Shown piece by piece: positions 356 through 22,389 of a stretch of 36,404 nucleotides of DNA. Within the stretch, counting starts at the first letter, position 1. Each line of letters opens with the position of its first letter. The notes beneath the pieces are model-generated. The model saw nothing but the letters and a program-made list of their open reading frames with translations, did not search any database and was not told the origin of the DNA. This DNA comes from a virus (Duplodnaviria > Heunggongvirae > Uroviricota > Caudoviricetes), in the IMG/VR virus record IMGVR_UViG_2923344815_000003, positions 1 through 36,404 of that record; one strand, given 5' to 3'. Both the position numbers and the translations under genes were made by a program.

Positions 356-367
356 CTTTCTTCCCGA

Positions 368-454: not shown

Positions 455-497
455 TGGGAAAGATAAGAATAAAATCAAAGCAATAAGCAGTGTCGTG

Positions 498-993: not shown

Positions 994-1275
994 ATGCGAT
1001 GTGGTTTATTAATGGCAATCTGCCTTTGTTTGGTATCTTTTAGTGGGTATGCAGCAACAGGAAAGTCAGATGCTCAGATCAAGAAAGAAATAATTAAAGA
1101 ATCCATTGAATCTTATCCAGGCAATTGTGCGTGTCCGTATAATCATGCAAGGAATGGTAGTAGATGTGGTGGACGCAGTGCATATAGCCGTACTGGAGGG
1201 TATGACGTGGTATGTTATGAAAGAGATGTTACCGATGAAATGATCCGGCAATGGAAGCAGGAGAATGCTGAGTAA
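994..1275 (+). CDS. small Cys-rich exported hypothetical protein (signal-peptide-like N-terminus)
   Basis: ORF 880-1275 in track; internal Met at 994 gives MRCGLLMAICLCLVSFSGYAA hydrophobic leader then Cys-rich mature part (GNCACPYN...RCGGRSAY...VVCYE); AT-rich by eye; start choice uncertain. Confidence 0.45.
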   Translation: MRCGLLMAICLCLVSFSGYAATGKSDAQIKKEIIKESIESYPGNCACPYNHARNGSRCGGRSAYSRTGGYDVVCYERDVTDEMIRQWKQENAE

Positions 1276-1352
1276 TCTCTTTTAACTGATTTGTTGTGCG
1301 AGCATTTTGTGCAGTTAACAGCTCACTAGCTAGTGAGAGTTCCAAAAAGAAA

Positions 1353-1376
1353 CCCCGCAGTTTTTACGCTGCGGGG
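1353..1376. terminator. bidirectional hairpin terminator
   Basis: ccccgcag / ctgcgggg stem; T-tract on plus side (ttgttatt) and on minus side (tttcttttt); lies between ORF 994-1275 and the hok/ogr transcription unit. Confidence 0.5.
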
Positions 1377-1464
1377 TTGTTATTCATGCCAATGAGATAG
1401 GGTGCCTTATCGGCCTTACCCTAGCAACCGATTGACGGGGAGTTGCCTCCCCGTCGCGGTTTCC

Positions 1465-1605
1465 TTACTGCTTACACTGTAAGAACGCCGCAAACTCCGC
1501 TCCCCAGAAGCTCATCCGTATTTCACACAGCGAACCGTGCAGCATCCAGATGATGAGGATTACCGTCACGCAGAACGTGATGGCCGTAAGCGATTTTTGC
1601 GACAT
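1465..1605 (-). CDS. hok: Hok/Gef-family type I toxin (small membrane peptide), 46 aa
   Basis: Hand translation of minus strand: MSQKSLTAITFCVTVILIIWMLHGSLCEIRMSFWGAEFAAFLQCKQ; TM helix followed by SLCEIR...EFAAF signature of Hok family; GGAG RBS upstream; too short to appear in the ORF track. Confidence 0.7.
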   Translation of the reverse strand: MSQKSLTAITFCVTVILIIWMLHGSLCEIRMSFWGAEFAAFLQCKQ

Positions 1606-1794
1606 AGCGCTTGCTCCTTTGTTGGAGAGGCGCTAACCTATCACTTGCTAGGTTGACGGGTTAGGGCCTCGGTTAAACAGAAATGTTTTCCGGGGCCTTT
1701 CCACATCCGGCCTTCGGGTATTCCCTCCGACCATCAGCCGAAAGGCACCCGCACGTAATCTATCGCTTTTTTGTTACTCCGGCAATTCTGCCTG

Positions 1795-2055
1795 TTAATT
1801 CTGAGGTAAAGGCAAACTCATCTGATTGTTTCCCCTGTGTGAAGCTGGCAGCTCATGCCACGGGATACCTTCTGATGAGTGAACGCCGGAGGCGTGTTTC
1901 GATGTGAATTTATGGAAAGCTTCCAGTGTTGAGAAGCATACGCCGCATTCCAGGTTGTTACACTGGTAATACTTTTGCCGCACGGTGTTTGAATCATTTT
2001 CCGGACGACTGGTGCGGATACGGGCAGATGCGCCACAAAGCGGACAACGGAACAT
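1795..2055 (-). CDS. ogr: Ogr/Delta-family zinc-finger late-gene activator
   Basis: MFRCPLCGASARIRTSR...YYQCNNLEC: C-x2-C ... C-x4-C arrangement and N-terminus as in P2 Ogr; AAGGGAGG RBS upstream. Confidence 0.85.
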   Translation of the reverse strand: MFRCPLCGASARIRTSRPENDSNTVRQKYYQCNNLECGVCFSTLEAFHKFTSKHASGVHSSEGIPWHELPASHRGNNQMSLPLPQN

Positions 2056-2097
2056 AGCGACCTCCCTTAACGTGGTGCTGCCGCTATTCTAAGTTGC

Positions 2098-3207
2098 TCA
2101 CTCTGTTTCCGCTATCCATTCCGGGATTTTTGCCTCAAGCTCAAGCTGCGTGGTAAAGCCGCTGTTATCAATGGTGTGCCCGGCTTTTGCAATAATCCAG
2201 TCCTGATTATCAATCTCGCTTTTAAATCCTGTTACCGTGCCATGCATTTCGGGGTAGAGTTCTGCTCGTCCACGTGCCAGCGTGATGGAGAATGATGCGG
2301 CTCCGCGTTGTAGTTGTTGCCACTTTGCCGCCGCTGCGCGTCTTGCTGCCTGCTCGTTCTGATAAGTCTTGCGTAACACAAACACATTGCCTTCCGCGCC
2401 TTCCATATAATCACCTTCACGGCTGCTGCTTTTCTCTTTTTTCGGTTTTGGCGGTTTGCGGCGTTTCACGCTGACTTTTTTCTTTTTCCCGTAATTAAGA
2501 TCAAGCCAGTAAGCGCGTACCCCCGTATACGCTTCGCGGTCAGCAATGCGGAACTGATGGCGATCGCCGCTGCTGCGTGTGATGGCGAACGATGGCAACG
2601 GCTGGCCCTGTGCGTTCACGCCACCGCCGGGCATGATGAATAACAGATTGCCGCTTTTTACCGTGGTGATTGCGCCCAGCATTTCCGCCATGCGCGTAAG
2701 GAAGGACATGTCGCTTTCTTCGGTCTGGTCGGCGTGGTCGATTTCGATATCCATCAGCATTTCGCTGATTTGCGGTTTCAGACCATACCGATGAGCGATG
2801 GCGGATACCACACGCTCAACGGTCACATCATGCCAGGACACCTCACGTTTAACGTTAAATTCATCCCGAAAATCTGCGCTTCTGGCTGAAACAGTCAGCC
2901 TGTCCGGCGGTCCTTCGTGAGCGATTTCATCAACAATGTAAGTGCCTTTTTCTGTCAGCGGTTCTCCTTTCCAGCCAATGAGAACCGTCAGGCGCGCGCC
3001 CCGTGGCGGTAGCAGCAACTGACCATCCGCATCATCCAGCGTGATGGTGAGCTGGTCCGCCTCAAATCCCCGGTTGTCGGTCAGTGACAGGCTCATCAGG
3101 CGCTCTGCCACGCCTGACAGCGTTTTACCCTCCGCGAGAATATCAAAATCCGGCATTTTTACGGGGTCTGTGCCCTGACTGAGCAATTGCATGGTGGTGT
3201 CGGTCAT
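2098..3207 (-). CDS. D: P2 gpD-like tail protein (late control D)
   Basis: Track ORF 2098-3339; likely start at 3207 (MTDTTMQLL...) preceded by AGGGAGGGAG RBS; sequence typical of gpD family. Confidence 0.85.
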   Translation of the reverse strand: MTDTTMQLLSQGTDPVKMPDFDILAEGKTLSGVAERLMSLSLTDNRGFEADQLTITLDDADGQLLLPPRGARLTVLIGWKGEPLTEKGTYIVDEIAHEGPPDRLTVSARSADFRDEFNVKREVSWHDVTVERVVSAIAHRYGLKPQISEMLMDIEIDHADQTEESDMSFLTRMAEMLGAITTVKSGNLLFIMPGGGVNAQGQPLPSFAITRSSGDRHQFRIADREAYTGVRAYWLDLNYGKKKKVSVKRRKPPKPKKEKSSSREGDYMEGAEGNVFVLRKTYQNEQAARRAAAAKWQQLQRGAASFSITLARGRAELYPEMHGTVTGFKSEIDNQDWIIAKAGHTIDNSGFTTQLELEAKIPEWIAETE

Positions 3208-3364
3208 CTGCTCCCTCCCTGTGCGGCATGGTCGCATGTGCGTGCGGAGGGGGTTACTGCTTTTTGTTGTCGCCGTGGCGGGAGAACGGCGCAGGGGTGA
3301 GATTACGCGCGTGGTGGGTGATGATTGTTGCCGAATCATTTAACGGATACAAGGGGCTGAAGCT

Positions 3365-4549
3365 ATGAGTGAAACTCGTTTTCATGGTGCCCGTGTTACG
3401 GAAAATACCGACCTGGTAACAGCGATTAACGATGTTGATTCCAGCGTTATCGGTATCGTGGCAACGGCGGATGATGCGGACGCGAAGCTGTTCCCGCTGA
3501 ACAAGCCCACACTGCTGACCCGCGTCAATGACGTGCTGGGAAAATGCGGGACAACGGGGACGCTTTATCGTGCGCTTAAGGCCATCGCAGACCAGGTGAG
3601 CACAAAGGTGATCGTCGTTCGCGTGGCTGAACACAAAGAAGAAGACGGAAAAACGCAGGATCAACTGGTTATCGGTGGTTCTGAATCTGACGGCAGCTAT
3701 ACGGGGATGTATGCGCTGCTTGTTGCAGAGCAGGATGAAAGCATCGGATACCGTCCGCGTATTCTGGCCGCGCCGGAGCTGGACACGGAGGCGGTAACAA
3801 AATCCCTGTGCGTGATTGCGGGTAAACTGCGCGCGTTTGTGTATGCCTCATGTCACGGCTGTAACACGATGGCTGAGGCGATTACCTACCGCCAGAAATT
3901 CAACGAACGTGAGGTGATGCTCTTATGGCCGGACTTCATCGCCTACAACCCGAAAAGTGGCAAAAACGAAACGTTCCCCGCGCCTGCTTATGCGTGCGGC
4001 CTTCGTGCGTACATTGACCATGAGCAGGGCTGGCACAAATCACTGTCCAACGTTCCGGTTAAAAATGTGCTGGGGATGTCCCGGCATGTGTTCTGGTCGT
4101 TGCAGGCCGAAGACAGCGATGCCAACAGCCTCAATAACAAAGAAATCACGACCATTATTCGTCGCAACGGGTTCCGCTTCTGGGGCAACCGCACACCGGA
4201 AACGAACGCCTACATCTTTGAGGTGTATACCCGAACCGCACAGGTGCTGGCTGATTCAATTGCGGAAGCGCAGTTTGAAACCATCGACAGTCCACTGACG
4301 CCTGCGAACGTGAAAGATGTTATCAGTGCCATCAGGGCAAAACTGGATTCGCTGGTGACTGCCGGGAAACTGATTGGGGCGTCGTGCTGGTATGACGTGG
4401 TGGATAACGGCACCACGGATTTACGTCAGGGACGTGTGCGTATTCGCTACAAATATACGCCCGTTCCGCCACTGGAAGACATGGAGCTTTACCAGACGTT
4501 TACTGATGAATACTTTGAACCCGCATTTGCGGTGCTGGGAGGTGCCTGA
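3365..4549 (+). CDS. FI: contractile tail sheath protein (gpFI)
   Basis: 394 aa, size and sequence character of P2 FI sheath; followed directly by tube gene. Confidence 0.9.
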   Translation: MSETRFHGARVTENTDLVTAINDVDSSVIGIVATADDADAKLFPLNKPTLLTRVNDVLGKCGTTGTLYRALKAIADQVSTKVIVVRVAEHKEEDGKTQDQLVIGGSESDGSYTGMYALLVAEQDESIGYRPRILAAPELDTEAVTKSLCVIAGKLRAFVYASCHGCNTMAEAITYRQKFNEREVMLLWPDFIAYNPKSGKNETFPAPAYACGLRAYIDHEQGWHKSLSNVPVKNVLGMSRHVFWSLQAEDSDANSLNNKEITTIIRRNGFRFWGNRTPETNAYIFEVYTRTAQVLADSIAEAQFETIDSPLTPANVKDVISAIRAKLDSLVTAGKLIGASCWYDVVDNGTTDLRQGRVRIRYKYTPVPPLEDMELYQTFTDEYFEPAFAVLGGA

Positions 4550-5061
4550 TGGCTGTGCCAAAACATCTTCGCTTTTTTACGCTGTTTGTGGATGGTGAAA
4601 ACGAAGTGGGTAAGGTGACGTCCGTCACCCTGCCTAAACTGACGCGCAAAACCGACAGCTACCGGGGTGGTGGCATGATGGGGGCGGTAAGTATTGATCT
4701 CGGTCTGGACGACTCCGCGCTTGATGCGAGCTTTGTCATGGGGGGCGCAGTTCGTGAGCTGTTTCTTAAGTATGGCGGCACGATTGACGGCACGCTGCTG
4801 CGTTTTGCGGGTGAATACTACACCGATGCAGAAAGCGACCTGTATGAAGTCGAAATGCGCGGACGTGTGACGGAAATTGATATGGGGGAAGCCAAACAGG
4901 GCGAAGCCACATCACACACTTACGCCATTAAAAACACCTACTACAAGCTGAGTGTTAACGATCGCCCGTTGTGGGAGATTGACCTGCTGAACTTCATTTA
5001 CCGGAAGGACGGCAAGGACATTGTGCCCGATCGCATCCGTTCCGCGCTTGGGCTTGGCTGA
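4549..5061 (+). CDS. FII: tail tube protein (gpFII)
   Basis: 170 aa; start overlaps FI stop (ATGA-type overlap); P2 FII-like. Confidence 0.9.
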   Translation: MAVPKHLRFFTLFVDGENEVGKVTSVTLPKLTRKTDSYRGGGMMGAVSIDLGLDDSALDASFVMGGAVRELFLKYGGTIDGTLLRFAGEYYTDAESDLYEVEMRGRVTEIDMGEAKQGEATSHTYAIKNTYYKLSVNDRPLWEIDLLNFIYRKDGKDIVPDRIRSALGLG

Positions 5062-5116
5062 TAAGTAATATGCAGGCGGCGCAGTGCGTCGCCTCTGACT
5101 GAAAAGGAGACAACTG

Positions 5117-5491
5117 ATGAAAGACATCGATACTGAAACCCGGAATAACACCGTGGCGGATGATGTGACGGCAGGTGAGGATATGGCTGTCGAACGTGGC
5201 GTAAAACTGACCCGACCAATTGAGCGTGGTGGCGAAAAAATCACGTATGTGGAGATCACCGGGGCTATTGAGCAGGCTGGATCCCTGCGTGGTCTGTCGC
5301 TGTCTGATGTGCTGAATCTGAAAGCGGATACCATGTTTACGCTGTTGCCTCGCGTGACCTCGCCACGACTGGATGAAGTGATGATTAAAAAAATGTCGTC
5401 ACGCGATTTTATTCAGTTGTGCGCTGTGGCTGTAAATTTTATGAGCGAGCCAGACTCTGGCGCGAAGAGCGTGCAGGAGACGGCAGCGTAA
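5117..5491 (+). CDS. E: tail assembly chaperone gpE
   Basis: 124 aa ORF between tube and tape-measure genes, the conserved position of E. Confidence 0.8.
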   Translation: MKDIDTETRNNTVADDVTAGEDMAVERGVKLTRPIERGGEKITYVEITGAIEQAGSLRGLSLSDVLNLKADTMFTLLPRVTSPRLDEVMIKKMSSRDFIQLCAVAVNFMSEPDSGAKSVQETAA

Positions 5492-5655
5492 TCACCCTGG
5501 TGTGCTTTGAGCACATCGAAGATCTGGTGGCGGATATTGCCGCCATTTTTAACTGGTCGCCCGCCGAAATCTTCATGATGACGCCCGGCGAAGTGGTTAG
5601 CTGGCGCGAGCGGGCGGCACTTCGCAGCGGGAATGCAGATAATGAAGACTCTTGA
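5117..5655 (+). CDS. gpE+E' fusion chaperone made by programmed -1 frameshift (predicted)
   Basis: The -1 frame is open from 5389 to 5655 overlapping the E 3' end; candidate slip sites are the A7 run at 5387-5393 and AAATTTT at 5434-5440. Confidence 0.5.
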
Positions 5656-8455
5656 TATCCGGGTCGCTTTCAGCGCCGTTGACAGGCTGACCCGGCCTGC
5701 CGAAAACGCCCGCCGCCTGATGGGGCAGTTTGGTGACTCCATCCAGCGAACGCAGGGGGCGATCAAAAATCTCGAGCGTCAGGCGCGTTCATTTGAGCGT
5801 GCCCGCGACGCTGTCAGTACAGCGGATGCGGGCATCGTGAAAGCACGACGCCAGCTTAACGCCCTTAATCAGTTACAACGCACGGGTACAGTGCTCAGCG
5901 AAAAACAACAAAAGCTGATGCAGCAGTTAAGCACCCGGCTTGAACGCCTGAATGAATCGCGCGCACGGGAAATTCAGAAAATGCGGGAGCTTGGCGGAGA
6001 GCTGAAACGCCACGGCATTTCCCTGACAGGCAGCGATAACACCATCCAGCAGGCCATCAGACGCACCGAACAGTACAACAACCAGCTTGAACGCGAACGG
6101 CAGGCGCTTGCGCGTGTAACGCGGGCGCGTGAGCGGTATTCGCGCTCGCAGGAAACTGCGGGGAAACTGAAAACAGGTGGTGCGCTGGCAACAGGTGCGG
6201 CAGCGGCGGGCGGCTATGCTGCCGGGCGTTTTTTACAGCCCGCGATCGGGTTCGGGAAAGAGATGTCCCGCGTTCAGGCACTGACGCGAATCGACCAGAA
6301 CAGCCCGCAGTTTAAGGCGCTGCGTGAGCAGGCGTTAAAACTTGGCTCTGAAACGCAGTTCACCGCTGGAGATGCCGCCAGTGGACAGGCATTTCTTGCA
6401 ATGGCTGGCTTCACACCACAGGCCATTCAGGCTGCGCTTCCCGGCGTGCTGAGCATGGCAACGGCTGGCGGTATGGATCTCGGCGAGACGGCGGATATTG
6501 GCTCAAATATCCTGACGCAGTTCGGCCTTTCTGCTGACCAGATGGACCGGGTCGGTGACACGCTCACCGCAGCGTTTACCCGTACCAACACTGACCTTCG
6601 CGCACTGGGCGAAACCATGAAATATGCAGGTCCGGTGGCGGGTAAGCTGGGAATATCGCTGGAGCAGGCCGCAGCGATGGCGGGCGTGCTGGCGAATATG
6701 GGTATCAGGGGAAGTGATGCCGGGACGGCAATGCGTGCCAGCCTGGCTCGTCTGGCATCACCGCCAAAGGCGGCAGCAGAGGCGCTGAAAGAGCTGGGTG
6801 TGGCTGTCTCTGACGCAAACGGCAAAATGCGCCCGATGGAGGATGTACTGGCCGACCTTTATAAAGCCACCCGCAAATACGGGGAAGTTGATCGGGTATC
6901 GTTCTTTAAGGACATTGCCGGAGAAGAGGCTTTCACATCATTTATGGCCCTCGTTGATGCGGCAGGTGACGGATCCTTACCTAAACTGAGAAAAGAACTT
7001 GAAGGCGCACGCGGTGAGGCTGAACGCACGGCAAAGGTTATGGCCAACAACCTTGACGGCGATCTGAAATCACTCGGCAGTGCATGGGAAGGGTTGCGCA
7101 TCCGCATTGCAGATCTGATTGACGGTCCGCTGCGTTCTGTCACGCAGTGGCTCACGCGGGTGGTATCAAAGGTGACGGCGCTGGCGCAGGCCCATCCGGC
7201 ACTGACGCGCCAGCTACTGATTGCAGGTGGGGCGTTGCTGGCGATGACTGCAACGGTCGGCTCGTTGTCGCTGGCTATTGGTGTGCTTGCTGGCCCGCTG
7301 GTAAAACTGCGTCTTGGCTTTTCCCTCCTGACCGGATCAATGAATGCTGTCAGGCTCCTGCCAGCACTATGGGGAATGGTGACGGGTTCCGTTTCGTTAC
7401 TGGGGGGCGCTATCGGGGCGCTGCTCAGCCCGGTCGGATTGATTGCTGCTGCGTTTGTGGCTGCGGCGGTTCTCATCTGGAAATACTGGGAACCCATCAA
7501 GGCGTTTTATGCAGGGGTGTTCAGTGGGATTATGGAACGGCTGGCTCCGTTGCGCGAAACCTTTGAACGGTTCGGTCCTGTTTTTGATGTCGTGCGCGAT
7601 GGGATCATTCAGGTCTTTAACTGGTTTAAATCGCTGCTGTCACCGATGGAGTCCGGCAAGGAAACGCTGGATAAATGTACCAGTGCTGGCGAGGTATTCG
7701 GCAGGGTACTCGGTGGAGCGATAGAGCTTGTCCTGACGCCAACAAAAGCATTGATGGATTCACTGGCGTGGATACTTGAAAAGCTCGGAGTGCTTCCGGA
7801 TGAAGCGGAACGGGCGAGAAAGAAAATAGAGAACGCTTCAAAGGCTCCTGTAATGTGGGAATGGGATCCGGTTCTCAAGAAAATGGTTCAGAAACCATGG
7901 ACTCCCGGCCCGGCCCCGTCAGATAAGGTCGACGACAAAAAAGGCGATAAACCCAAAGACAACAAACCGCTCACAGACAACAATACCGGTACGCTGCGCA
8001 GACTCAGCAAAATTGCTGATAACACAGGTAAGCTGGTTGATGAGACGAAAAAACGCATTGGCCCCGGCGATATTGTCTTTAAGAACCTGCCCCGCGCACT
8101 TGCTGTTCGTGGGGAGTGGCAGGAGCGGAAGATTGCGCAGGTCAGTAAGCCTGCCCCCGCAATTAATATCACACCCGTGGTTCCGGCTCCGCTGCCTCCG
8201 GCGCTGGTCCCTGTTGTTGCGGCCAGCTCCCGCCCGGTGGCGGAGGCCATACGATCGCCAGTGGCATCAGTTCCTGCAACTTCCCGTAATCGGGAGCCTG
8301 TTGCCTCCGGATTTGGTGGTGAAATTCATGTTCATCTGCATAACGTTGTTACACAGAATCCCCGCGAACTGGCGAAACTGGTTGGCGAAATGGTCAGGGC
8401 AGAAATGGAACGGCGCGCCCGTGCCGGGCGTGGCAGTTTTTACGATAAAGATTGA
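5633..8455 (+). CDS. T: tail tape measure protein (gpT)
   Basis: 940 aa, coiled-coil rich N-terminus, Gly/Ala-rich hydrophobic middle, position after E/E'. Confidence 0.9.
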   Translation: MQIMKTLDIRVAFSAVDRLTRPAENARRLMGQFGDSIQRTQGAIKNLERQARSFERARDAVSTADAGIVKARRQLNALNQLQRTGTVLSEKQQKLMQQLSTRLERLNESRAREIQKMRELGGELKRHGISLTGSDNTIQQAIRRTEQYNNQLERERQALARVTRARERYSRSQETAGKLKTGGALATGAAAAGGYAAGRFLQPAIGFGKEMSRVQALTRIDQNSPQFKALREQALKLGSETQFTAGDAASGQAFLAMAGFTPQAIQAALPGVLSMATAGGMDLGETADIGSNILTQFGLSADQMDRVGDTLTAAFTRTNTDLRALGETMKYAGPVAGKLGISLEQAAAMAGVLANMGIRGSDAGTAMRASLARLASPPKAAAEALKELGVAVSDANGKMRPMEDVLADLYKATRKYGEVDRVSFFKDIAGEEAFTSFMALVDAAGDGSLPKLRKELEGARGEAERTAKVMANNLDGDLKSLGSAWEGLRIRIADLIDGPLRSVTQWLTRVVSKVTALAQAHPALTRQLLIAGGALLAMTATVGSLSLAIGVLAGPLVKLRLGFSLLTGSMNAVRLLPALWGMVTGSVSLLGGAIGALLSPVGLIAAAFVAAAVLIWKYWEPIKAFYAGVFSGIMERLAPLRETFERFGPVFDVVRDGIIQVFNWFKSLLSPMESGKETLDKCTSAGEVFGRVLGGAIELVLTPTKALMDSLAWILEKLGVLPDEAERARKKIENASKAPVMWEWDPVLKKMVQKPWTPGPAPSDKVDDKKGDKPKDNKPLTDNNTGTLRRLSKIADNTGKLVDETKKRIGPGDIVFKNLPRALAVRGEWQERKIAQVSKPAPAINITPVVPAPLPPALVPVVAASSRPVAEAIRSPVASVPATSRNREPVASGFGGEIHVHLHNVVTQNPRELAKLVGEMVRAEMERRARAGRGSFYDKD

Positions 8456-8461
8456 GGAGTC

Positions 8462-8956
8462 ATGGCCATGATGATGATCTACGGCATGTTTGTTTTTGAG
8501 CTGCGCACATTGCCGCATCAGCAGTTACAGCAAAACAAAAGCTGGCGGCATGTGAAAAATGAACGCGTTAACCGTTCAGCAAGCTGGCAGTATATCGGTG
8601 CAGGTGATGATCGCATCGTGCTTTCAGGCGTGCTTTATCCTGAAATTACAGGTGGCGAAGTGTCGCTGTCGCTGCTGACCACGCAGGCATATACAGGACG
8701 CCCCTGGCCTCTGATTGATGGCGTCGGGCAGATTTACGGCATGTATGTCCTGACCGAAACGAGTACGACCCGCTCTGAATTTGATCGCTACGGTAAGGCG
8801 AAAAAAATAGAATTTTCACTGACCCTTGAACGCTGTGATGAGGATTTGCGGGAGCGTCTGCAATCCTCATCGTTCAGCGATATGCTGTCCGGCTTCAAAG
8901 ATAAAGTGACATCATCTCTTAACAGCGCGGCCAGTTCAGTTAAAGGGCTGTTCTGA
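8462..8956 (+). CDS. U: tail protein gpU
   Basis: 164 aa, MAMMMIYGMFVFELRTLPHQQLQ N-terminus like P2 U. Confidence 0.85.
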   Translation: MAMMMIYGMFVFELRTLPHQQLQQNKSWRHVKNERVNRSASWQYIGAGDDRIVLSGVLYPEITGGEVSLSLLTTQAYTGRPWPLIDGVGQIYGMYVLTETSTTRSEFDRYGKAKKIEFSLTLERCDEDLRERLQSSSFSDMLSGFKDKVTSSLNSAASSVKGLF

Positions 8957-8968
8957 TTTAACACAAAA

Positions 8969-8993
8969 ACCGCTAATGGCCAGATTAGCGGTT
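8969..8993. terminator. bidirectional terminator between convergent U and invertase genes
   Basis: accgctaat / attagcggt stem, T-tracts on both strands. Confidence 0.5.
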
Positions 8994-9575
8994 ATTTTGT
9001 TTACTCTTCTCAATTGTTCCGCTTGATTCTCCTGCGGGGTGGTAACGATAAATCGTCGATGTACCAATGCCGTAAATTATTGCCAGTTGTTTTCTGTCGT
9101 GCCCGTTTTTAATCAGCCTTGCTATTTGCTCATTCTGTTCTATTGTCAGCTTCGGGCGACGTCCGCCTGTGCGTCCTTGTGCGCGTGCTGCTGCCAGACC
9201 GGCCAGTGTACGCTCTACAATTAATTCACGTTCCATTTCAGCCAGGGCACCCATCACGTGGAAGAAAAAACGCCCCATTGGAGAAGATGTATCTATGCTG
9301 TCGGTCAGACTGCGAAAATTAATCCCTCGCTCCCGTAGTTCCCCGACGAGAGAAATCAGATGTTTCATGCTTCGCCCGAGGCGATCCAGTTTCCAGACAA
9401 CCAGCGTGTCACCTTGTTGAAGGCGCTTTAAAGCGCGTTTTAATCCCGGTCGGTCTGTCTTTGTCCCGCTTAATTTATCTTCAAATATTTGTTCACATCC
9501 TGCACAAACAAGAGCGTTTCGTTGCAGGTCTGTATTCTGGTCATTTGTTGATACCCTTACATAGCCAATCAGCAC
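8985..9575 (-). CDS. Gin/Cin/Pin/Hin-family serine DNA invertase
   Basis: VLIGYVRVSTNDQNTDLQRNAL... catalytic Ser region, C-terminal HTH; near-identical in its N-terminal two-thirds to Mu Gin as I recall it; GTG start at 9575 with GGGAGA RBS (track ORF starts 9593). Confidence 0.9.
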   Translation of the reverse strand: MLIGYVRVSTNDQNTDLQRNALVCAGCEQIFEDKLSGTKTDRPGLKRALKRLQQGDTLVVWKLDRLGRSMKHLISLVGELRERGINFRSLTDSIDTSSPMGRFFFHVMGALAEMERELIVERTLAGLAAARAQGRTGGRRPKLTIEQNEQIARLIKNGHDRKQLAIIYGIGTSTIYRYHPAGESSGTIEKSKQNNR

Positions 9576-9629
9576 ACTGAATCTCCCGTCCAAAAGCGCA
9601 AATCATGCCATGCAGGCCAGAAACGGCCA

Positions 9630-9655
9630 TTATCTAAAACCTCGGTTTACAGGAA
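9630..9655. other. gix/cix-like recombination site (left)
   Basis: ttatctaaaacc-tc-ggtttacaggaa: 12-2-12 dyad matching the Gin/Cin crossover-site consensus as I recall it. Confidence 0.7.
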
Positions 9656-9711
9656 ACGGTAAATCAGGCTTCTGGCGCATTACAGAAAAAACAGAACGGC
9701 GCAGATATTCC
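9642..9711. repeat. left arm of 70-bp perfect inverted repeat bounding the invertible tail-fibre segment
   Basis: Reverse complement of 12621-12690 is identical base for base (checked by hand). Confidence 0.8.
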
Positions 9712-10636
9712 CGATAAAAAACTATTCCTGCGTAATATCGGCACAACAAATTCAACAACCATGTCTTTTAGTGGTGGTGCTGGATGGTTCAAACTGGCAA
9801 CTGTAACAATGCCACAAGCCAGTTCCGTGATTTACATAAGCCTGATTGGTGGCGCAGGGTATAACGTTGGCTCCTCGCATCAAGCAGGCATCTCTGAGCT
9901 GGTTCTGCGTGCCGGAAATGGGAATCCAAAAGGTATTACTGGTGCATTATGGCGACGGACATCGGTTGGATTTACTAATTTTGCATGGGTGAATACATCC
10001 GGTAATACCTATGATGTTTATGTTGAAATAGGTAATTACGCCACAGGTGTTAATATTCAGTGGGATTATACCAGTAACGCCAGCGTAACGATTCATACAT
10101 CACCAACTTATACAGCGAATAAACCAACAGGCCTGACAGATGGAACTGTATATGTAATTTACAGTTCGCACATTAAACCGACTGCTGCTGAGGTTGGGGC
10201 GTTGTCATTATCTGGCGGTCAATTGAATGGTGCACTGGGCATCGGAACATCCAGTGCTCTTGGTGGTAACTCGATTGTTTTGGGTGATAATGACACGGGA
10301 TTTAAACAAAATGGCGACGGGTATCTGGATGTTTATGCGAATAACGTCCATGTTATGCGCTTTGTCTCCGGCAGCATTCAAAGTAATAAAACCATAAATA
10401 TTACAGGGCGTGTTAACCCCTCGGATTACGGTAACTTTGATTCCCGTTATGTGAAAGATGTTCGCCTGGGTACGCGTGTTGTTCAATTGATGGCGCGTGG
10501 TGGTCGTTATGAAAAAGCCGGACACGCAATTACCGGATTAAGAATCATTGGTGAAGTAGATGGCGATGATGAAGCCATCTTCAGACCAATACAAAAATAC
10601 ATCAATGGCACATGGTATAACGTCGCACAGGTGTAA
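9644..10636 (+). CDS. alternative tail-fibre C-terminal exon (silent in this orientation)
   Basis: Reading frame open from the crossover site; first 23 codons (LGLQETVNQASGALQKKQNGADIP) identical to the corresponding stretch of H; C-terminus ...INGTWYNVAQV resembles the H C-terminus; track ORF 9761-10636 is the Met-initiated part. Confidence 0.75.
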   Translation, partial: GLQETVNQASGALQKKQNGADIPDKKLFLRNIGTTNSTTMSFSGGAGWFKLATVTMPQASSVIYISLIGGAGYNVGSSHQAGISELVLRAGNGNPKGITGALWRRTSVGFTNFAWVNTSGNTYDVYVEIGNYATGVNIQWDYTSNASVTIHTSPTYTANKPTGLTDGTVYVIYSSHIKPTAAEVGALSLSGGQLNGALGIGTSSALGGNSIVLGDNDTGFKQNGDGYLDVYANNVHVMRFVSGSIQSNKTINITGRVNPSDYGNFDSRYVKDVRLGTRVVQLMARGGRYEKAGHAITGLRIIGEVDGDDEAIFRPIQKYINGTWYNVAQV

Positions 10637-10639
10637 ATT

Positions 10640-11167
10640 ATGCAGCATTTAAAAAATATTAAGTCAGGAAATCCAAAAACAAAAGAGCAATATCAGCTAA
10701 CAAAGAATTTTGATGTTATCTGGTTATATACAGAAGACGGTAAAAACTGGTATGAGGAAGTAAATAACTTTCAGGACGACACCATAAAGATTGTATACGA
10801 CGAAAATAATATTATTGTCGCCATCACCAAAGATGCCTCCACGCTTAACCCTGAAGGTTTTAGCGTTGTCGAGGTTCCTGATATTACCGCCAACCGACGT
10901 GCTGATGACTCAGGTAAATGGATGTTTAAGGATGGTGCTGTGATTAAGCGGATTTATACGGCTGACGAACAGCAACAACAGGCCGAATCACAAAAGGCCG
11001 CGTTGATTTCTGAAGCTGAAAGCGTTATTCAGCCACTGGAACGCGCTGTCAGGCTGAATATGGCGACGGATGAAGAGCGTAGCCGACTGGAAGCATGGGA
11101 ACGCTACAGTGTTATGGTCAGCCGTGTGGATACGGCAAAGCCCGAATGGCCACAAAAGCCTGAGTAA
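10640..11167 (+). CDS. alternative tail-fibre assembly chaperone (silent partner)
   Basis: 175 aa, N-terminus [22 protein letters not shown] nearly identical to the convergent chaperone at 11196-11729. Confidence 0.8.
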
Positions 11168-11172
11168 AAATT

Positions 11173-11192
11173 AAGGCCCGATATCGGGCCTT
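11173..11192. terminator. palindromic hairpin between convergent assembly-chaperone genes
   Basis: aaggcccgat / atcgggcctt perfect palindrome. Confidence 0.45.
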
Positions 11193-11195
11193 CTC

Positions 11196-11729
11196 TCATT
11201 CTGGTTGTTCGGGAAACGTTACTGGCAAGCTGGAAGTGTCTGTAGATTCGACTTTCTGCGCAAAGAGCATCCACTCTGTTAATTTTTGTTTATTCTCGTC
11301 GGAAATGATGCCCAGCCGTAGCTGTGAGTCCCATAGCTGGGTTTTATCCCTGACGAGCTGTAGCAGGCTTTGCTTTTCATTTTCCGCCTGCTGCCTCTGC
11401 TCTTCCTCGGTATAAGTTCGCCTTACCACTACGCCATCTTTGAACATCCATTTACCCGAAATATCAGCCCGGCGATTTGCTGTAATATCAGGAACCTCAA
11501 CGACGCTTGCGCCTTCTGGATTAATTGCTGAAACATCCTTTTCAATACAAATAATAACGCCGTTACGGTCATAGACCATTTTCAACGTATCAGGCTGAAA
11601 GTTCTTTTGTTCCTCATACCAGTTTTTTCCATCATCTGAATAAAGCCATTTGATGTTAAATTGCTTTGTTAGCTGGTATTGCTCTTTTGTTTTAGGGTTG
11701 CCAGCAGTAATATTTTTTAAGTGCATCAT
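11196..11729 (-). CDS. tail-fibre assembly chaperone (expressed copy)
   Basis: 177 aa, immediately downstream of H on the same strand. Confidence 0.85.
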   Translation of the reverse strand: MMHLKNITAGNPKTKEQYQLTKQFNIKWLYSDDGKNWYEEQKNFQPDTLKMVYDRNGVIICIEKDVSAINPEGASVVEVPDITANRRADISGKWMFKDGVVVRRTYTEEEQRQQAENEKQSLLQLVRDKTQLWDSQLRLGIISDENKQKLTEWMLFAQKVESTDTSSLPVTFPEQPE

Positions 11730-11731
11730 AA

Positions 11732-14098
11732 TTAAATACTCCCCGCGTTATACCACGTTCCATTAATGCAATACTGAATTGGCCTTGCCTGAGTTGTATC
11801 AATTAATTCATCACGGTTTCCGTTAACTGAACCCGTAACGACATAACCTGACCTGTCAGACCAGCCGGGACCATTCCATGTCTGAACAGATGACAGACCG
11901 CCCAGGCGAATACCTGTAATAAACCTTGAGTTACATTCTGCCTGCGTATATGCACCAACATCCCCCGCAGAGGGTTTGCGGGTTGTGGTGTAAAACTCTG
12001 ACCAGTTAGCTTCAAAGCCATAACCATCACGCGCTGAACGATAAAAGATACCGCCGTTTTTATAATTCACGCGGAACTGTACAGCAGGGCAACTCCCCGC
12101 ATTCATATTAAAGTGGAGGATTAATGTCGATGCGCCACTGATATCTGCATCATAAACGCCGCTATTCCAGTTCCAGCCAACAGCTTTATCATTTGCAACC
12201 CTGCTTCCTGTTTGCCCTAAAGCAAATGCAGGCTGCTGGTTTTTCGTGTTGTAGTCTCGTCGCCAGCCAGGAGCATAAGCATCACCATGATTAATATAGG
12301 TGAATTGAGCGTTAGTAATTCCGCCGCCGCTGGACGTACTCGCCGTAGTAACGCGTATGGTCATTGCGCCGCGAGTGCCAATAACTTCCACCACTGCACC
12401 TGCAAGACAAATATTTCCGCAACCTGTATCTGTAATGACCTTATTGTTTGCATAAGCCCATGAGCCTTTGCACATCCAGTAAGGATGGTTAAATGCCCCC
12501 TGACTCTCCAGCCACGAAATGAATTGTGCGGTTGTCCAGGTCTGACTATCGCCACCAATATTCAGCCATGCGCTATATGCGCGGCAGGCACCAATATTTT
12601 TGGTGAAGGTATCTTTTCCCGGAATATCTGCGCCGTTCTGTTTTTTCTGTAATGCGCCAGAAGCCTGATTTACCGTTTCCTGTAAACCGAGGTATTCGAT
12701 AACAGCGGCAACGGTCGATTTCGCAAGAATATCCCGCCCGACTTTTGTCAGGGTTGCCAGGCTGGCGACATCATTCCCCGTAAAATACGGAAACCTGTCT
12801 GCCGCAGTAGCAAGCCCGGCCAGCGCCGTCAGGGTGGCATCTTTCGGTTGCTTACCCGCAAGCGCGTTAGTCATGGTGGTCGCAAAATTCGGGTCGTTGC
12901 CCAGCGCCGCCGCCAGCTCGTTCAGCGTATTCAGTGCGTCAGGCGACGAGTCTACAAGTGCGGCAATCGCGGCCATCACATAAGCCGTGCTTGCGATCTG
13001 AGTATTATTAGTCCCTTTTGGCGCAGTTGGCGTTGTTGGCGTTCCGGTCAGCGCAGGACTGTTTAAAGGCGCTTTCTTGTTCGTTTCATCCATTACCGCC
13101 TTAACCGCTTTCGGTGTCGCGGCCAGTGTTTCAGACGTGCTGTTGGTGGCACTACTGAGCTGGACTATCCCTTTTTGTGCCGTCGTGGCGTCCTGAGCGG
13201 TATATTTTGCGTTAGCAAGGTCATACGCGGCCTTTACTGCTTTCGGCGTTGCAGCCTGCGTTTCAGACGTGCTGTTGGTGGCGCTACTGAGCTGGACAAG
13301 GCCTTTTCGCGTCGTGCTGGCATCCTGCGCAGTATATTTTCCGTTAGCAAGGTCATACGCGGCCTTTACTGCTTTCGGCGTTGCAGCCTGCGTTTCAGAC
13401 GTGCTGTTGGTGGCGCTACTGAGCTGAACTATCCCTTTCCGCGCAATGGTAGCGTCCTGTGCGGTGTATTTGCCATTAGCCAGGTCATATGCTGCCTTTA
13501 ATGCTTTCGGCGTTGCAGCCTGCGTTTCAGATGTGCTGTTAGTGGCGCTACTGAGTTGAACAAAGCCTTTTGCGGTCAGCGAGGCGTCCGGGTGACGTCG
13601 TGACCGTTCATGCTCTTTCAGTTTGTCATCCACGTAATCCACTGTGGCCATCACCATGGTGTTATCCACGGTAAGCGCCACGGTGGCAGTGCTGGATACG
13701 GTCAGAATGGTGCGAAACGTTTGTGCACGACCGGACCCTTCGGCAACGGCTGGCTTGTAACTTTCGGCAGTATTGCCCACCGCGATTAAATCGCCGTGCT
13801 CATCAAATACACCAATTTCCCGGATCCAGAATCCGCCCGTTTCAGGAGGAATAACCAGCTCCGCAATAATGCGGTTCTGATGTGTTGCGTCCAGGATGAC
13901 GCGATTAACAGTGTGTCGCCACACCTCATGCACCAGACGGGTCTGCTTACTGTCTGGTGTGGGCAACGTGCCGCCACCGTCGCCCACGGCCATATGAGTC
14001 AGGCAGACAGGCTTACCATCTGGCGCGGCTGCCTGCGCTAATTTTTTTGCACCCGTATCGGTGATAACGGTTTTAAATTTTCGTGTTGTGGTACTCAT
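11732..14098 (-). CDS. H: tail fibre protein gpH (constant N-terminal part plus currently joined variable C-terminal part)
   Basis: 788 aa; conserved P2 H-like N-terminus; four tandem ~40-aa fibre repeats; gix-like site inside the gene at 12677-12702. Confidence 0.9.
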   Translation of the reverse strand: MSTTTRKFKTVITDTGAKKLAQAAAPDGKPVCLTHMAVGDGGGTLPTPDSKQTRLVHEVWRHTVNRVILDATHQNRIIAELVIPPETGGFWIREIGVFDEHGDLIAVGNTAESYKPAVAEGSGRAQTFRTILTVSSTATVALTVDNTMVMATVDYVDDKLKEHERSRRHPDASLTAKGFVQLSSATNSTSETQAATPKALKAAYDLANGKYTAQDATIARKGIVQLSSATNSTSETQAATPKAVKAAYDLANGKYTAQDASTTRKGLVQLSSATNSTSETQAATPKAVKAAYDLANAKYTAQDATTAQKGIVQLSSATNSTSETLAATPKAVKAVMDETNKKAPLNSPALTGTPTTPTAPKGTNNTQIASTAYVMAAIAALVDSSPDALNTLNELAAALGNDPNFATTMTNALAGKQPKDATLTALAGLATAADRFPYFTGNDVASLATLTKVGRDILAKSTVAAVIEYLGLQETVNQASGALQKKQNGADIPGKDTFTKNIGACRAYSAWLNIGGDSQTWTTAQFISWLESQGAFNHPYWMCKGSWAYANNKVITDTGCGNICLAGAVVEVIGTRGAMTIRVTTASTSSGGGITNAQFTYINHGDAYAPGWRRDYNTKNQQPAFALGQTGSRVANDKAVGWNWNSGVYDADISGASTLILHFNMNAGSCPAVQFRVNYKNGGIFYRSARDGYGFEANWSEFYTTTRKPSAGDVGAYTQAECNSRFITGIRLGGLSSVQTWNGPGWSDRSGYVVTGSVNGNRDELIDTTQARPIQYCINGTWYNAGSI
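12621..12690. repeat. right arm of 70-bp perfect inverted repeat
   Basis: Reverse complement equals 9642-9711. Confidence 0.8.
12677..12702. other. gix/cix-like recombination site (right), inside H
   Basis: ttcctgtaaacc-ga-ggtattcgataa. Confidence 0.7.
13100..13590. repeat. four tandem ~120-bp repeats inside H (tail-fibre repeat domain)
   Basis: Protein repeat VQLSSATNSTSETQAATPKAVKAAYDLANGKYTAQDA x4; DNA units nearly identical. Confidence 0.8.
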
Positions 14099-18800: not shown

Positions 18801-19001
18801 CTACTCCCCCCACAACTGAATCATTTCTCGTTTCTTCTTCTCCGGCTCCGGCATCTCCACGTCCTGCCCGGCGTCCAGAAATACCTGCTGACAGAGTCCG
18901 GGGTTGGCATCCAGCACCTTTTCGGTGACGCCCTGCGTCGTGCCGTAGTACCGGAAACAGAGCGAATCCACGGTGTCGCCTTCCAGTGCCTTCACTTTCA
19001 T
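18801..19001 (-). CDS. X: tail protein gpX
   Basis: MKVKALEGDTVDSLCFRYYG... 66 aa, P2 X-like; start overlaps L stop. Confidence 0.8.
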   Translation of the reverse strand: MKVKALEGDTVDSLCFRYYGTTQGVTEKVLDANPGLCQQVFLDAGQDVEMPEPEKKKREMIQLWGE

Positions 19002-19504
19002 CAGCACAACTCCGCAAAGATTCGCGGGCGGCACAGAATGTCAGAGATGGCCCAGCTCACATCGCGCCACAAATCTGATGTCTGTATATCCAGTGCGTCC
19101 GCCCGGCGGTCGCCCTTGTCCGTTGTGTCCGCATCGCGGTAACGCTCCAGAATCAGGGCGCGTGTGGCGGTATAAACAGCATTGCGCCAGTGCCAGAGAT
19201 TGACGCTTTCTCCGTTAATTACGGGTGCCGGAACATCGGCCAGCGTCTGATGGCCAGCCGCCTGCTGTTCCTGCTGCCATGCTTCCAGCTCGCGGGTAAC
19301 GTGAGCCACCGCCCCGGTGGCGGTATGCAGCAGGCGGGAGGTGGTCACACGGCCCGGCAGTCGTACCGCCAGACGCAGCTCACGCAGCACAATATCCGGC
19401 CAGAATGCGCCCGCTGAAATACGGGTATCACCATCATCGGTATCGGTGATGTCGTCCTCTGCGGGTCCGGGGTTGGTTCTGGCAACCATACTCATGGGGT
19501 TCAC
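19001..19504 (-). CDS. L: head completion/stabilisation protein gpL
   Basis: 167 aa, conserved position. Confidence 0.85.
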   Translation of the reverse strand: MNPMSMVARTNPGPAEDDITDTDDGDTRISAGAFWPDIVLRELRLAVRLPGRVTTSRLLHTATGAVAHVTRELEAWQQEQQAAGHQTLADVPAPVINGESVNLWHWRNAVYTATRALILERYRDADTTDKGDRRADALDIQTSDLWRDVSWAISDILCRPRIFAELC

Positions 19505-19597
19505 TCCTGAAAAAAATCGGGCGGTGGGTGCGCGGTGTAAACGGTCACGGAGTCAAACCGGAACACCGCGCACGCCGCCCGCTGACGGGGTCAGTCG

Positions 19598-20398
19598 TTA
19601 ACCGCGCTTCGCCTTCTGCGTCGCGGTGGTTTTTCGTGTTGCAGGCTTCCGCGTTGTCTTTTTACTTTTGCTGCTTTCGTCCTGCGCCTGCTGTGCGCTG
19701 GCGTCTTCTGGTGCGGCTGCGGAATCGGCTTTTTTCAGGGCGCGGGAAAGGGTTGCAATCTCGCGTTTCACACCTGCGTTCGGGTTCAGGTGCATTGCTT
19801 CGCGCAGCAGCTTCAGTGACAGTGCCATGCTGTCCGCATCGCTCAGGCCACGGCGGGCAAAGGCGCACGCCTTGCATAATTTGGCGCGCACTTCGTCCGG
19901 CATGTCCTGGTCGGTGACAATCTCCCGGAGGGTATCCAGTGGTTTGATAAAGGCGGACAAATCCGCGTCGGCATCCGTCCCGGCCTGCGTCAGTACCGGG
20001 TTGCAGATTTCTTCGGTCAGCACTGTGGCAGCAGTACGGCCAAAGTTATCCGGCATAATGAGGTTATGACGGACCACATACGCACCAATACGCAACGCCA
20101 GCGGAAGATCGCCGCAGTCAATCGCCCACACCATCAGCGTGGCAATCACTTCATCCTGCTGCCCGCCGTCAGCCTCCAACGTTCCCTCAATCCAGCCGGA
20201 AAAATCCGGCAACAACTCTTTTTTGATGGCGGCTTTCGCGCTTCTGGCCTGTACGCCCTTAAGCCGGGCCTGTGCCAGACGCAGACGATACAGCACCTCT
20301 TCATGCGCGGTACGCGCGGCGTGGTCCACGCCTTCATTCGCCCGGCCTGCGCGCTGTGCCATCACGTTCTGCCAGTGTTGCTGTGCAGGAGTAATCAT
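19598..20398 (-). CDS. M: terminase endonuclease (small) subunit gpM
   Basis: 266 aa, basic C-terminus, position upstream of L. Confidence 0.85.
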   Translation of the reverse strand: MITPAQQHWQNVMAQRAGRANEGVDHAARTAHEEVLYRLRLAQARLKGVQARSAKAAIKKELLPDFSGWIEGTLEADGGQQDEVIATLMVWAIDCGDLPLALRIGAYVVRHNLIMPDNFGRTAATVLTEEICNPVLTQAGTDADADLSAFIKPLDTLREIVTDQDMPDEVRAKLCKACAFARRGLSDADSMALSLKLLREAMHLNPNAGVKREIATLSRALKKADSAAAPEDASAQQAQDESSKSKKTTRKPATRKTTATQKAKRG

Positions 20399-20443
20399 TG
20401 TTTCTCTCCGTTACAGGCGGGCATGATGCCCGCCGTGAGTTGA

Positions 20444-21496
20444 TTAGCTGTCGGCGAACTTCAGGCCAGTGACCATCGCGCACTTGCCATAGTCTTCAAC
20501 GACATAAGCGTCATTGATGGACTGGTAGGTGGCGATGCGGTTGTATTCCGGCTCGTCTTTCATCAGGCGACGCATTGAACCTTTCTGCCAGTAAATCGAC
20601 AGGTTGTTGAACGAGGTGATCAGCATCGTTGCATCCGGGAAGAACGGCGCAAGGAACACACCCAGCCCGCCAATGGTGCGCGATGACAGGATGAGCTGCC
20701 CGGCGAGTAATTCCGCATTGGGATTCTGGCCGCTGATGCTGTTCAGCACGGGCAGACGCAGCGAGTTAAACAGGTTGCGCCCCATAATCACCACGAGGTC
20801 GTCAGCTTCCTTGTGCCATTCATCCAGCAGGGATGAGCGTGCGTCCTGAACCAGTGCATCAGCATTCGCATACTTACCCGCGTGCGCCACGGTGTTGTCC
20901 ATGTTGCGGGAGGTCAGCGTCACGTCATTCATTACGCGCGCGCTGGCATTGGTTCTGATGTGCTCCAGCCACCCCACGTTAACGTCCTGAAGCAGCTTGT
21001 TGGTGCTGAAGTTGGATTTTTCCGCGTGTGACGTGCCGTTAAAGCCGATCATGATGCGGTCAAGCGCCACCTGTCGGGCAATCTGTGCGCTGATGCGGGT
21101 CTGGAAGTCATTGTGCGCCGCCCAGGCATCAAGCTGCGGATACGAAATAAACGTGTCGTAGTTCACCTGCTCACACTGGTACTGACGGGACTTCAGGTCG
21201 ACAGCGTTAATCGGGTTGCGGCGATCTGTGCCGTCATAACTGGTATTTGTGCGCGCAATCGGCCCGGTGGTGTCCATGAGGACTTTTTCGCCTTTCTGGT
21301 CGGTCACACCGATCACGTTAATTTTTTTTGTAAGTTCGGTGCTATCCTTTGAGGCGTTTTCAAAACGCTGCTGCACCGCGGGTTCCACGGTAAATCGCGA
21401 TACCAGTCCAGAAACCGGGATATTGTTAATCGACGCCTGTCGCGTCATGTAGCAGCCCAGCTTGTTACGGGCATTATCTGACATCACCAGATTCAT
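20444..21496 (-). CDS. N: major capsid protein gpN
   Basis: 350 aa; FTVEPAV motif region as P2 N. Confidence 0.9.
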   Translation of the reverse strand: MNLVMSDNARNKLGCYMTRQASINNIPVSGLVSRFTVEPAVQQRFENASKDSTELTKKINVIGVTDQKGEKVLMDTTGPIARTNTSYDGTDRRNPINAVDLKSRQYQCEQVNYDTFISYPQLDAWAAHNDFQTRISAQIARQVALDRIMIGFNGTSHAEKSNFSTNKLLQDVNVGWLEHIRTNASARVMNDVTLTSRNMDNTVAHAGKYANADALVQDARSSLLDEWHKEADDLVVIMGRNLFNSLRLPVLNSISGQNPNAELLAGQLILSSRTIGGLGVFLAPFFPDATMLITSFNNLSIYWQKGSMRRLMKDEPEYNRIATYQSINDAYVVEDYGKCAMVTGLKFADS

Positions 21497-21519
21497 AAAA
21501 AATTTGCTCCTTTGTCTTA

Positions 21520-22389
21520 TCAGAAGTCAGCCAGCTGGTCGGAGGCTGCGCCCGTTGCGGTGAACCGGTTCTGCGGATCGCCGTCCTGCGTGCGCAGTTT
21601 TTCCTTCAGTGCTGTCAGCTCTGTGGTCAGCGAAGTGATTTTCTGGCTGTCCTGCTGATGGCGGGTTTCCAGTGCATTAAAACGGTCGATAATGTCGGCC
21701 TGTGATGTTGCGACACCTTCCACCGCTTCCTGAATACGGGAGAAACTGGCGTCATCCGCTTTGCGGCCACGGCCAATAATCCCCATAACGCGGTTAAACC
21801 ACTGGGTGCCTTCTTCCTGACGTTGTTCGGTGAGTTCGATAAGTTCTGACTCCATAGCGGCGGTAAACATCGCCACGTCTCCCTGCTGACAGTTGAATGT
21901 CATCAGTTGCATACGTTGTTGTGCCGCAAAGGCCAGACGTTCCGTGCCCAGGCTGGCGGGGGTGTCGGTCATTGCCAGCCCGCGCAGGTAAGGGCCTCCC
22001 GTGATGGTTGACTGTGGTTCCAGCTCAATACTGGAGTAAATTTTTTTACCATCGTTAAGCAGGGACATCATGCGAGCGGTCGGCTCAATTTCGGCATACA
22101 GTGCCGTGCGGCCTGCCAGCGGGCCATCGGTTATGTCTTCGGTGCTCAACCCCACAACATCGCCCATAGCGGAAAACTCGCTGCCGGGGAGTGGTGACAG
22201 GATGTGCTCAATATTCACACGTGCACCATAAACGGACGGGTTATAACTGGTGGCGGCAGCTTTCAGCATGTCGCCGTTGATTTCGCGCCCGTCTGCCGTC
22301 ACACCGGAGACAGCCACGCGAAACTTTTTGCGGGATGTCTTTTTTTCATTAGTCATAGTTTTTGCCCCTCTGACTGGTTCTTCAGTCAT
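21520..22389 (-). CDS. O: capsid scaffolding protein gpO
   Basis: 289 aa; probable true start at Met 22356 (MTNEKK...). Confidence 0.85.
   Translation of the reverse strand: MTEEPVRGAKTMTNEKKTSRKKFRVAVSGVTADGREINGDMLKAAATSYNPSVYGARVNIEHILSPLPGSEFSAMGDVVGLSTEDITDGPLAGRTALYAEIEPTARMMSLLNDGKKIYSSIELEPQSTITGGPYLRGLAMTDTPASLGTERLAFAAQQRMQLMTFNCQQGDVAMFTAAMESELIELTEQRQEEGTQWFNRVMGIIGRGRKADDASFSRIQEAVEGVATSQADIIDRFNALETRHQQDSQKITSLTTELTALKEKLRTQDGDPQNRFTATGAASDQLADF

Follow-up and report, generated by a model that had tools for sequence, protein, structure and literature searches.

A stretch of 36,404 nucleotides (nt) from a tailed virus of the class Caudoviricetes (IMG/VR record IMGVR_UViG_2923344815_000003, positions 1 to 36,404; hereafter the window, meaning this whole stretch) carries an invertible segment of 3,049 base pairs (bp), at 9642–12690, which holds alternative ends of the tail-fibre gene H and lies beside a gene for a serine DNA invertase. 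Our analysis leaves us confident that the locus is a functional two-state host-range switch of the Gin type, that is, one worked by a Fis- and enhancer-dependent serine invertase, in a P2-like prophage. An earlier note, made from the sequence alone, had described the locus as a tail-fibre switch resembling the G segment of phage Mu. That description is supported now that every part of the locus has been compared with Mu, with the qualification that the element hosting the switch is P2-like and that only one of the two fibre tips is Mu-like.

The ends of the segment provide the first line of evidence. Positions 9642–9711 are the exact reverse complement of 12621–12690 at 70 of 70 positions, as had been claimed, and the perfect inverted repeat in its maximal form is 73 bp long (left arm, 9639–9711; right arm, 12621–12693, within H), with three outer bases beyond the 70 bp reported before; an imperfect extension reaches 89 nt at 94%. 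Two 26-bp crossover sites of the gix-like 12-2-12 form were recognized, the left one on the plus strand at 9630–9655 (TTATCTAAAACC TC GGTTTACAGGAA) and the right one on the minus strand at 12677–12702 (TTATCGAATACC TC GGTTTACAGGAA). They are in inverted relative orientation, and each has TC as its central dinucleotide. Both gix sites of Mu (AF083977) read, from outside to inside, TTATCCAAAACC TC GGTTTACAGGAA; the left site of the window agrees with them at 25 of 26 positions and the right site at 24 of 26, which confirms the resemblance to the Gin crossover site that the earlier note had described. The same note had placed the 26-bp sites within the 70-bp stretches. The sites are real, but they straddle the outer ends of those stretches, the 70-bp repeat beginning exactly at the central TC. 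The differences from Mu gix are confined to the outer half-sites, which remain with the flanks on inversion. The left site lies upstream of the invertase gene, 54 nt from its GTG start at 9575, and the gene is transcribed away from the segment, whereas the right site falls inside H (11732–14098, minus strand); both placements had been proposed and hold.

The 17-nt core of the sites, ACCTCGGTTTACAGGAA, was found in exactly two copies in the 36.4-kb window with up to three mismatches allowed, where 0.01 would be expected by chance, and the locus is therefore a simple two-state switch. A multi-segment shufflon, of the kind seen in a prophage of enteropathogenic Escherichia coli (EPEC) with three repeats or of the Min type of p15B, was considered and rejected on the same count. 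Searches of contigs representing one genome per species returned no match for the 34-nt left site and only one short metagenome-assembled contig for a 21-nt core; both results are uninformative, because prophages are rarely included in species representatives.

The invertase gene (8985–9575, minus strand) encodes 196 amino acids (aa) from a GTG start that is preceded by GGGAGA, as in Mu gin; a mechanical call of open reading frames (ORFs) starts it instead at a TTG at 9593. The protein has a Resolvase domain (Pfam; residues 3–135, E=2.2e-50) and an HTH_7 domain (residues 138–181, E=1.6e-12). The alignment to known invertases that had been suggested as a check gave identities of 85% to Mu Gin (181 aa aligned), which shares 117 of the first 120 residues, and of 74% to P1 Cin; the match to the Gin structure 4M6F was strong (E=7e-99). 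In these alignments the catalytic Ser9 and the residues Arg7, Asp64, Arg65 and Arg68 are all as in Gin, and the inactivating change around the catalytic serine that the earlier note had named as an argument against a working switch is not there. Residues specific to Fis-dependent invertases have been described in Hin, namely Gln151, Arg154 and Leu155 together with basic residues at 47, 48 and 51 (PMC3798978). With the one-residue offset of the alignment to the Hin structure 1HCR, they correspond to Q150, R153 and L154 and to K46, R47 and K50 of the protein in the window. By its sequence, the invertase is intact and belongs with the Gin/Cin/Pin/Hin ('Din') group of Fis- and enhancer-dependent serine invertases.

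A recombinational enhancer is predicted within the invertase gene. The P1 record annotates the Cin enhancer at cin nt 19–90, and transfer of this position places a presumed Fis-dependent enhancer at 9486–9557 (minus strand) in the window. Over its first 110 nt, the invertase gene does not differ from Mu gin, and identity to Mu is approximately 96% for the region running from the left site into the gene. For Mu as well, an enhancer within the invertase gene has been described (Kahmann 1985). The enhancer at this position and the use of Fis are presumed from homology.

The cargo of the segment consists of two convergent pairs, each comprising a fibre tip and a chaperone. H encodes a fibre of 788 aa, of which residues 1–469 (12691–14098, minus strand; Phage_tail_fib, 4.6e-53; Phage_fiber_2, 4.7e-83) lie outside the segment and are constant. 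This part starts with a P2-type tail-collar, continues with four Phage_fiber_2 repeats and is 86% identical to the fibre of phage 503458. The expressed variable part, residues 470–788 (11732–12690, minus strand), is of the Mu S' type: it shows 95.9% identity to Mu S'v over 318 aa and 87% to P1 S'v, and it matches the Mu S/S' structure 8JU3 (E=4e-213). It is followed by the expressed tail-fibre assembly chaperone of 177 aa (11196–11729, minus strand; Caudo_TAP, 1.2e-35), which is of the Mu U' type, with 96% identity to Mu U' and 95% to P1 U'. Since the expressed pair is of the S'/U' type, the present orientation corresponds to the G(-) state of Mu; the difference in host range between G(+) and G(-) has been summarized elsewhere (PMC4406740).

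The silent pair is encoded on the plus strand. The alternative C-terminal exon of the fibre covers 330 codons at 9644–10636 and has neither a promoter nor a start of its own. The alternative chaperone beside it, of 175 aa (10640–11167; Caudo_TAP, 7e-37), is of the Mu U type, being 94% identical to both Mu U and P1 U, and it matches chain B of the Mu U structure 5YVQ (E=8e-109). We rejected an assignment of the silent tip as Mu S, as only its last 77 aa align, at 49%; homology to the Mu cargo is thus evident for three of the four parts (S'v, U' and U), the second tip being the fourth. The silent tip shares 85.5% identity with P1 S in its last 76 aa. Its full length is 93–95% identical to the tips of the Yersinia phages vB_YpM_39, vB_YpM_5 and vB_YpM_6, and its residues 172–330 share 86% identity with the gpH tips of L-413C and other P2-family phages. 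In vB_YpM_39, a plaque-forming phage isolated on Yersinia pestis, the homologous exon (94.8% identical) is expressed as the fibre tip; the silent exon thus encodes a tip that works.

Inversion of 9642–12690 in silico produced an uninterrupted fibre of 800 aa, with the silent exon in frame with H codons 1–469. The open frame of the flipped form, with a Caudo_TAP gene attached to each exon, agrees with the previous proposal that inversion would exchange the C-terminus of the fibre together with its chaperone. The 788-aa and 800-aa fibres have residues 1–493 in common, codons 470–493 being contributed by the repeat arm, and the variable receptor-binding part amounts to the C-terminal 319 residues at present or 331 after inversion. 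A shared beginning of both exons had been noticed before and is real, but it extends to approximately 24 residues after the crossover and not 23. Between the two chaperone genes, the terminator scan found a central GC-rich hairpin at 11173–11192, AAGGCCCGATATCGGGCCTT, which is likely to act as the terminator for whichever operon is in use.

Direct evidence of inversion was found in relatives of the locus. No locus match of 99% or more was found in complete E. coli genomes and phage records, the best match in a complete E. coli genome being 95.7% identical over 86%. We counted orientations among complete E. coli records that cover at least 80% of a 5.3-kb locus query, using the native and the in-silico flipped query on one strand: 46 records were native and 49 were flipped. 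Junction searches gave best identities of 98.9% for an 800-nt flipped junction and 99.6% for the native one. We also compared two near-clonal pairs of strains base by base. In the O145 strains RM9467-C1 and RM9872, the loci of 8,300 nt share their chromosomal position, and the only difference between them is an exact inversion bounded by a 73-bp repeat. In 2022S01-140 and 2022S01-140-18, the loci of 8,047 nt are likewise identical except for an exact inversion, and the repeat that bounds it is only 25 bp, ACCTCGGTTTACAGGAAACGGTAAA. These 25 bp comprise the core and the inner half-site, which argues for site-specific rather than RecA-dependent exchange. Both pairs carry the same two 26-bp sites as the window, and their invertases are 95% identical to that of the window. 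We infer that the copy in the window can invert as well. In P2-like prophages of EPEC E2348/69, inversion was demonstrated by sequencing and polymerase chain reaction (PMC4272514).

A further observation was made in E. coli WS1933D, whose 'complete' chromosome (NZ_CP035836.1) retains an untrimmed terminal overlap of approximately 11.2 kb (1–11175 and 4972976–4984149). The two copies of the overlap are 99.8–99.96% identical except that the homologous segment is oppositely oriented, and the sequenced culture therefore contained both orientations. Both copies have an invertase annotated as frameshifted; the frameshift may be a long-read error, or the inversion may have been catalysed in trans.

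The following mechanism is proposed. Invertase dimers would bind the sites at 9630–9655 and 12677–12702, and synapsis would take place at the enhancer, bound by Fis, within the 5' part of the invertase gene. Staggered cuts would then be made at the central TC/GA dinucleotide of both sites, a cleavage position that we infer, and be followed by a 180-degree rotation of subunits, as described for Gin and Hin (PMC3575834, PMC3798978). Religation would invert the 3,049-bp segment, whereas the fibre promoter (late), the start codon and the first 469 codons would stay in place outside it. The orientation would thereby decide which receptor-binding C-terminal exon is fused in frame and which downstream chaperone is co-transcribed with it. 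In the present orientation, this would give the 788-aa fibre with the Mu S'/U'-type tip, and in the flipped orientation, the 800-aa fibre with a P2/L-413C-type tip and the Mu U-type chaperone. The virions released by a population of lysogens would accordingly be mixed, with two host ranges among them.

Several observations weigh against a functional switch. The window itself displays a single orientation; its two outer half-sites mismatch each other at 2 of 12 positions; and a scan for sigma-70 consensus promoters found none for the invertase near 9576–9660. Mu gin is itself weakly expressed. The catalytic domain of the invertase is closer to Gin than its DNA-binding domain is: of 28 differences, nearly all lie after residue 120, in a region that resembles Hin or Pin (E=5e-11 to the Hin DNA-binding domain structure 1HCR), and the protein has the appearance of a chimera in which a Gin-type catalytic domain is joined to a DNA-binding domain of the Hin/Pin type. 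Finally, Fis dependence is presumed from homology, and the host fis gene lies outside the window.

The first three of these points, in particular, would be expected if the switch were frozen, that is, if its parts looked intact while inversion no longer occurred at a meaningful rate, leaving the silent exon as a mere relic. Possible causes would be low expression of the invertase, the differences between the outer half-sites, or a Hin/Pin-like DNA-binding domain mismatched to the sites, and the authors of a study on SfMu suspected that one altered base in a single repeat might be enough to prevent inversion (PMC4406740). We consider such freezing improbable. The same pair of 26-bp sites, served by invertases 95% identical to the one here, has been inverted between near-clonal isolates, and the orientations are nearly equally frequent among the E. 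coli relatives. In addition, the perfect 73-bp repeat and the intact silent frame of 330 codons argue for ongoing use, and the half-site differences are not adjacent to the central dinucleotide.

It might also be supposed that the switch mainly serves the lysogenic host, for example through a fibre-derived protein that blocks the adsorption of other phages. A precedent is offered by cryptic prophages in which PinQ/PinR inversion is reported to inhibit T2 adsorption (PMC12529663; bioRxiv 10.1101/2025.03.28.646004). Here, however, the element looks like a complete prophage, both versions of the fibre are full-length virion proteins with dedicated chaperones, and the regulation of P2 late genes leads us to expect no transcription of the fibre operon in a lysogen; a principal role of this kind is thus very improbable. 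There is hardly any chance that inversion proceeds mainly by RecA-dependent homologous recombination, with the recombinase gene being incidental: although a perfect repeat of 73 bp suffices for rare homologous recombination and WS1933D has both orientations despite its frameshifted annotation, one near-clonal pair was inverted over a repeat of 25 bp, which is far too short for efficient RecA recombination, the outer boundary of the repeat coincides with the crossover site in Mu, the window and relatives, and invertase, sites and enhancer region are conserved together.

The functional Gin-type switch that we favour is an ordinary and apparently intact example of the classic Mu G-type switch, and its value is practical; it opens no new question. 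It adds another example of a fibre cassette of Mu, P1 and P2 being shared across phage families. A lysogen should release virions of two host ranges, one with a Mu G(-)-type tip and one with a P2/L-413C-type tip, and a 3-kb inversion between assemblies of this prophage may be genuine. For annotation, the 'partial' fibre ORF at 9761–10636 and the second chaperone gene are to be read as the silent half of a switch and not as pseudogenes. This ORF is listed as a free-standing frame of 291 aa, and its relatives in RefSeq are named 'tail fiber protein', 'hypothetical protein' or a pseudogene 'missing N-terminus'; it belongs to the alternative 3' exon of H, which lacks a promoter. None of the five proteins of the locus was assigned to a specific family by NCBIfam. 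In the constant part of H, a 132-bp tandem repeat at 13098–13571 (3.6 copies, 86% matches) encodes the four 44-residue Phage_fiber_2 repeats. The copy number of this repeat varies among relatives, the fibre of phage 503458 being 661 aa long and that of the window 788 aa. On the other side of the locus, a hairpin with T-runs on both strands lies at 8968–8993, in the interval between a gpU-like tail gene (8462–8956, plus strand) and the invertase gene; it gave a terminator-like match on both strands and is likely a bidirectional terminator.

At 44.9%, the GC content of the segment is below that of the whole window (52.5%) and that of the constant part of H (55.2%), and this low value is consistent with a horizontally shared cassette. 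Similarity to two other phages breaks off within a few bases of the sites, extending over window positions 9630–12702 for Mu and 9626–12693 for vB_YpM_39. We tentatively raise the idea that the crossover sites may double as module boundaries at which host-range cassettes are swapped among Mu-like, P1-like, P2-like and vB_YpM_39-type phages, possibly by the invertase, although we regard it as rather unlikely. Invertase-mediated exchange would possibly be an occasional event between co-resident phages, beside homologous recombination. The ends of homology at the sites, the GC contrast and the chimeric-looking invertase are hints in this direction, but the evidence is equally compatible with homologous recombination in the conserved repeat as the route of cassette exchange. 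Mosaicism of fibre genes has long been known; only the mechanism of exchange, if true, would be new.

The gene content of the window marks it as a P2-like prophage (Xuanwuvirus/P88 type) and not as Mu. The best matches to the whole window are Xuanwuvirus phages; Escherichia phage 503458 (NC_049341) shows 95% nucleotide identity over 86% of the first 25 kb and shares the gene order of tape measure, gpU, invertase, segment, H, I and J. A genuine Mu prophage was considered and rejected: the flanks are of P2 type, with gpU, gpT, gpI/Tail_P2_I, gpJ, gpD, a gpA-like replication protein and a tyrosine integrase. The window looks like a complete prophage, in which the modules for tail, head, replication and integration are full. 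Its left end carries a cluster of tRNA-Gly(gcc), tRNA-Cys(gca) and tRNA-Leu(taa) genes at 152–454, and its right end the tyrosine integrase gene at 35403–36404; the window appears to be one whole P2-like prophage beside the tRNA Gly-Cys-Leu cluster.

Two other features of the prophage were recorded. In the early or regulatory region at 31320–31517 (minus strand), Rfam matches were obtained for the C4 antisense RNA (31320–31407, 80 bits) and the Hfq-binding RNA isrK (31443–31517, 70 bits), both overlapping an ORF at 30957–31574 with matches to transcription regulators; the region resembles an antisense immunity element of the P1/P7 type inside a P2-like prophage. At 26745–27704 (minus strand), a protein of 319 aa matches the phage 'partition protein' family phrog_691 (5.6e-90), and the related phage 520873 is annotated with the plasmid segregation protein ParM. 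A partition-type protein is an unexpected cargo for an integrated P2-like prophage.

Among known systems, the G segment of Mu has the same layout, with the constant part of the fibre, a site, two convergent tip and chaperone pairs, a second site and an invertase gene read outward, whose 5' end adjoins the crossover site in both cases. The two segments are also similar in length (approximately 3.06 kb between the boundaries annotated in the Mu record). What distinguishes the window from the classic Mu case is its longer perfect repeat (73 bp compared with 34 bp in Mu; PMC4406740), its second tip (of the vB_YpM/L-413C or P2 type, in place of Mu S), its chimeric-looking invertase with a C-terminal DNA-binding domain diverged from that of Gin, and its P2-like backbone with a P2-type fibre N-terminus, in contrast to the transposable genome of Mu. 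Moreover, Mu has com/mom next to gin, and no com/mom is found downstream in the window.

The C segment of P1 and P7, with Cin and cix, carries homologous cargo and likewise has its enhancer inside the invertase gene; P7 is 95% identical at the nucleotide level over window positions 10427–12655. The phage type is different from a P2-like prophage, P1 cin points towards the segment, its 3' end lying at cixL, whereas the invertase gene of the window points away from it, and the inverted repeats of P1 are much longer, at approximately 0.6 kb. Hin with hix in Salmonella and Pin with the P segment of e14 involve invertases of the same Fis-dependent serine family; the comparison covered the DNA-binding domain of Hin and the invertase-specific residues. 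Hin flips a promoter, whereas the switch in the window flips a coding exon, and e14 is a defective lambdoid element, unlike the prophage described here.

In the Yersinia phage vB_YpM_39 (OR545053), the whole segment is 95% identical to that of the window, with homology ending at the crossover sites. This 49-kb circular phage has another backbone, and its module (18835–23874) has a different constant part of the fibre on the left and 'hin' on the right, the reverse of the window; vB_YpM_5 and vB_YpM_6 are Mu-like phages whose backbone is also unlike that of the window. The flipped junction is matched at 98.9% by plasmid-like records of approximately 48 kb from E. coli ATCC 25922, and the match takes in 400 nt of the constant part of H. 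Of the systems described, those closest to the locus are the invertible fibre modules found in P2-like coliphages and prophages. Modules in phages of the Xuanwuvirus/P88 type, such as 503458, 520873 and Citrobacter phage phiSM, have invertases 95–96% identical to that of the window. Phage 503458 has different tips and covers only 79% of the locus, at 92% identity, and one prophage of EPEC E2348/69 has three repeats and four variants, compared with two sites and two states here (PMC4272514).

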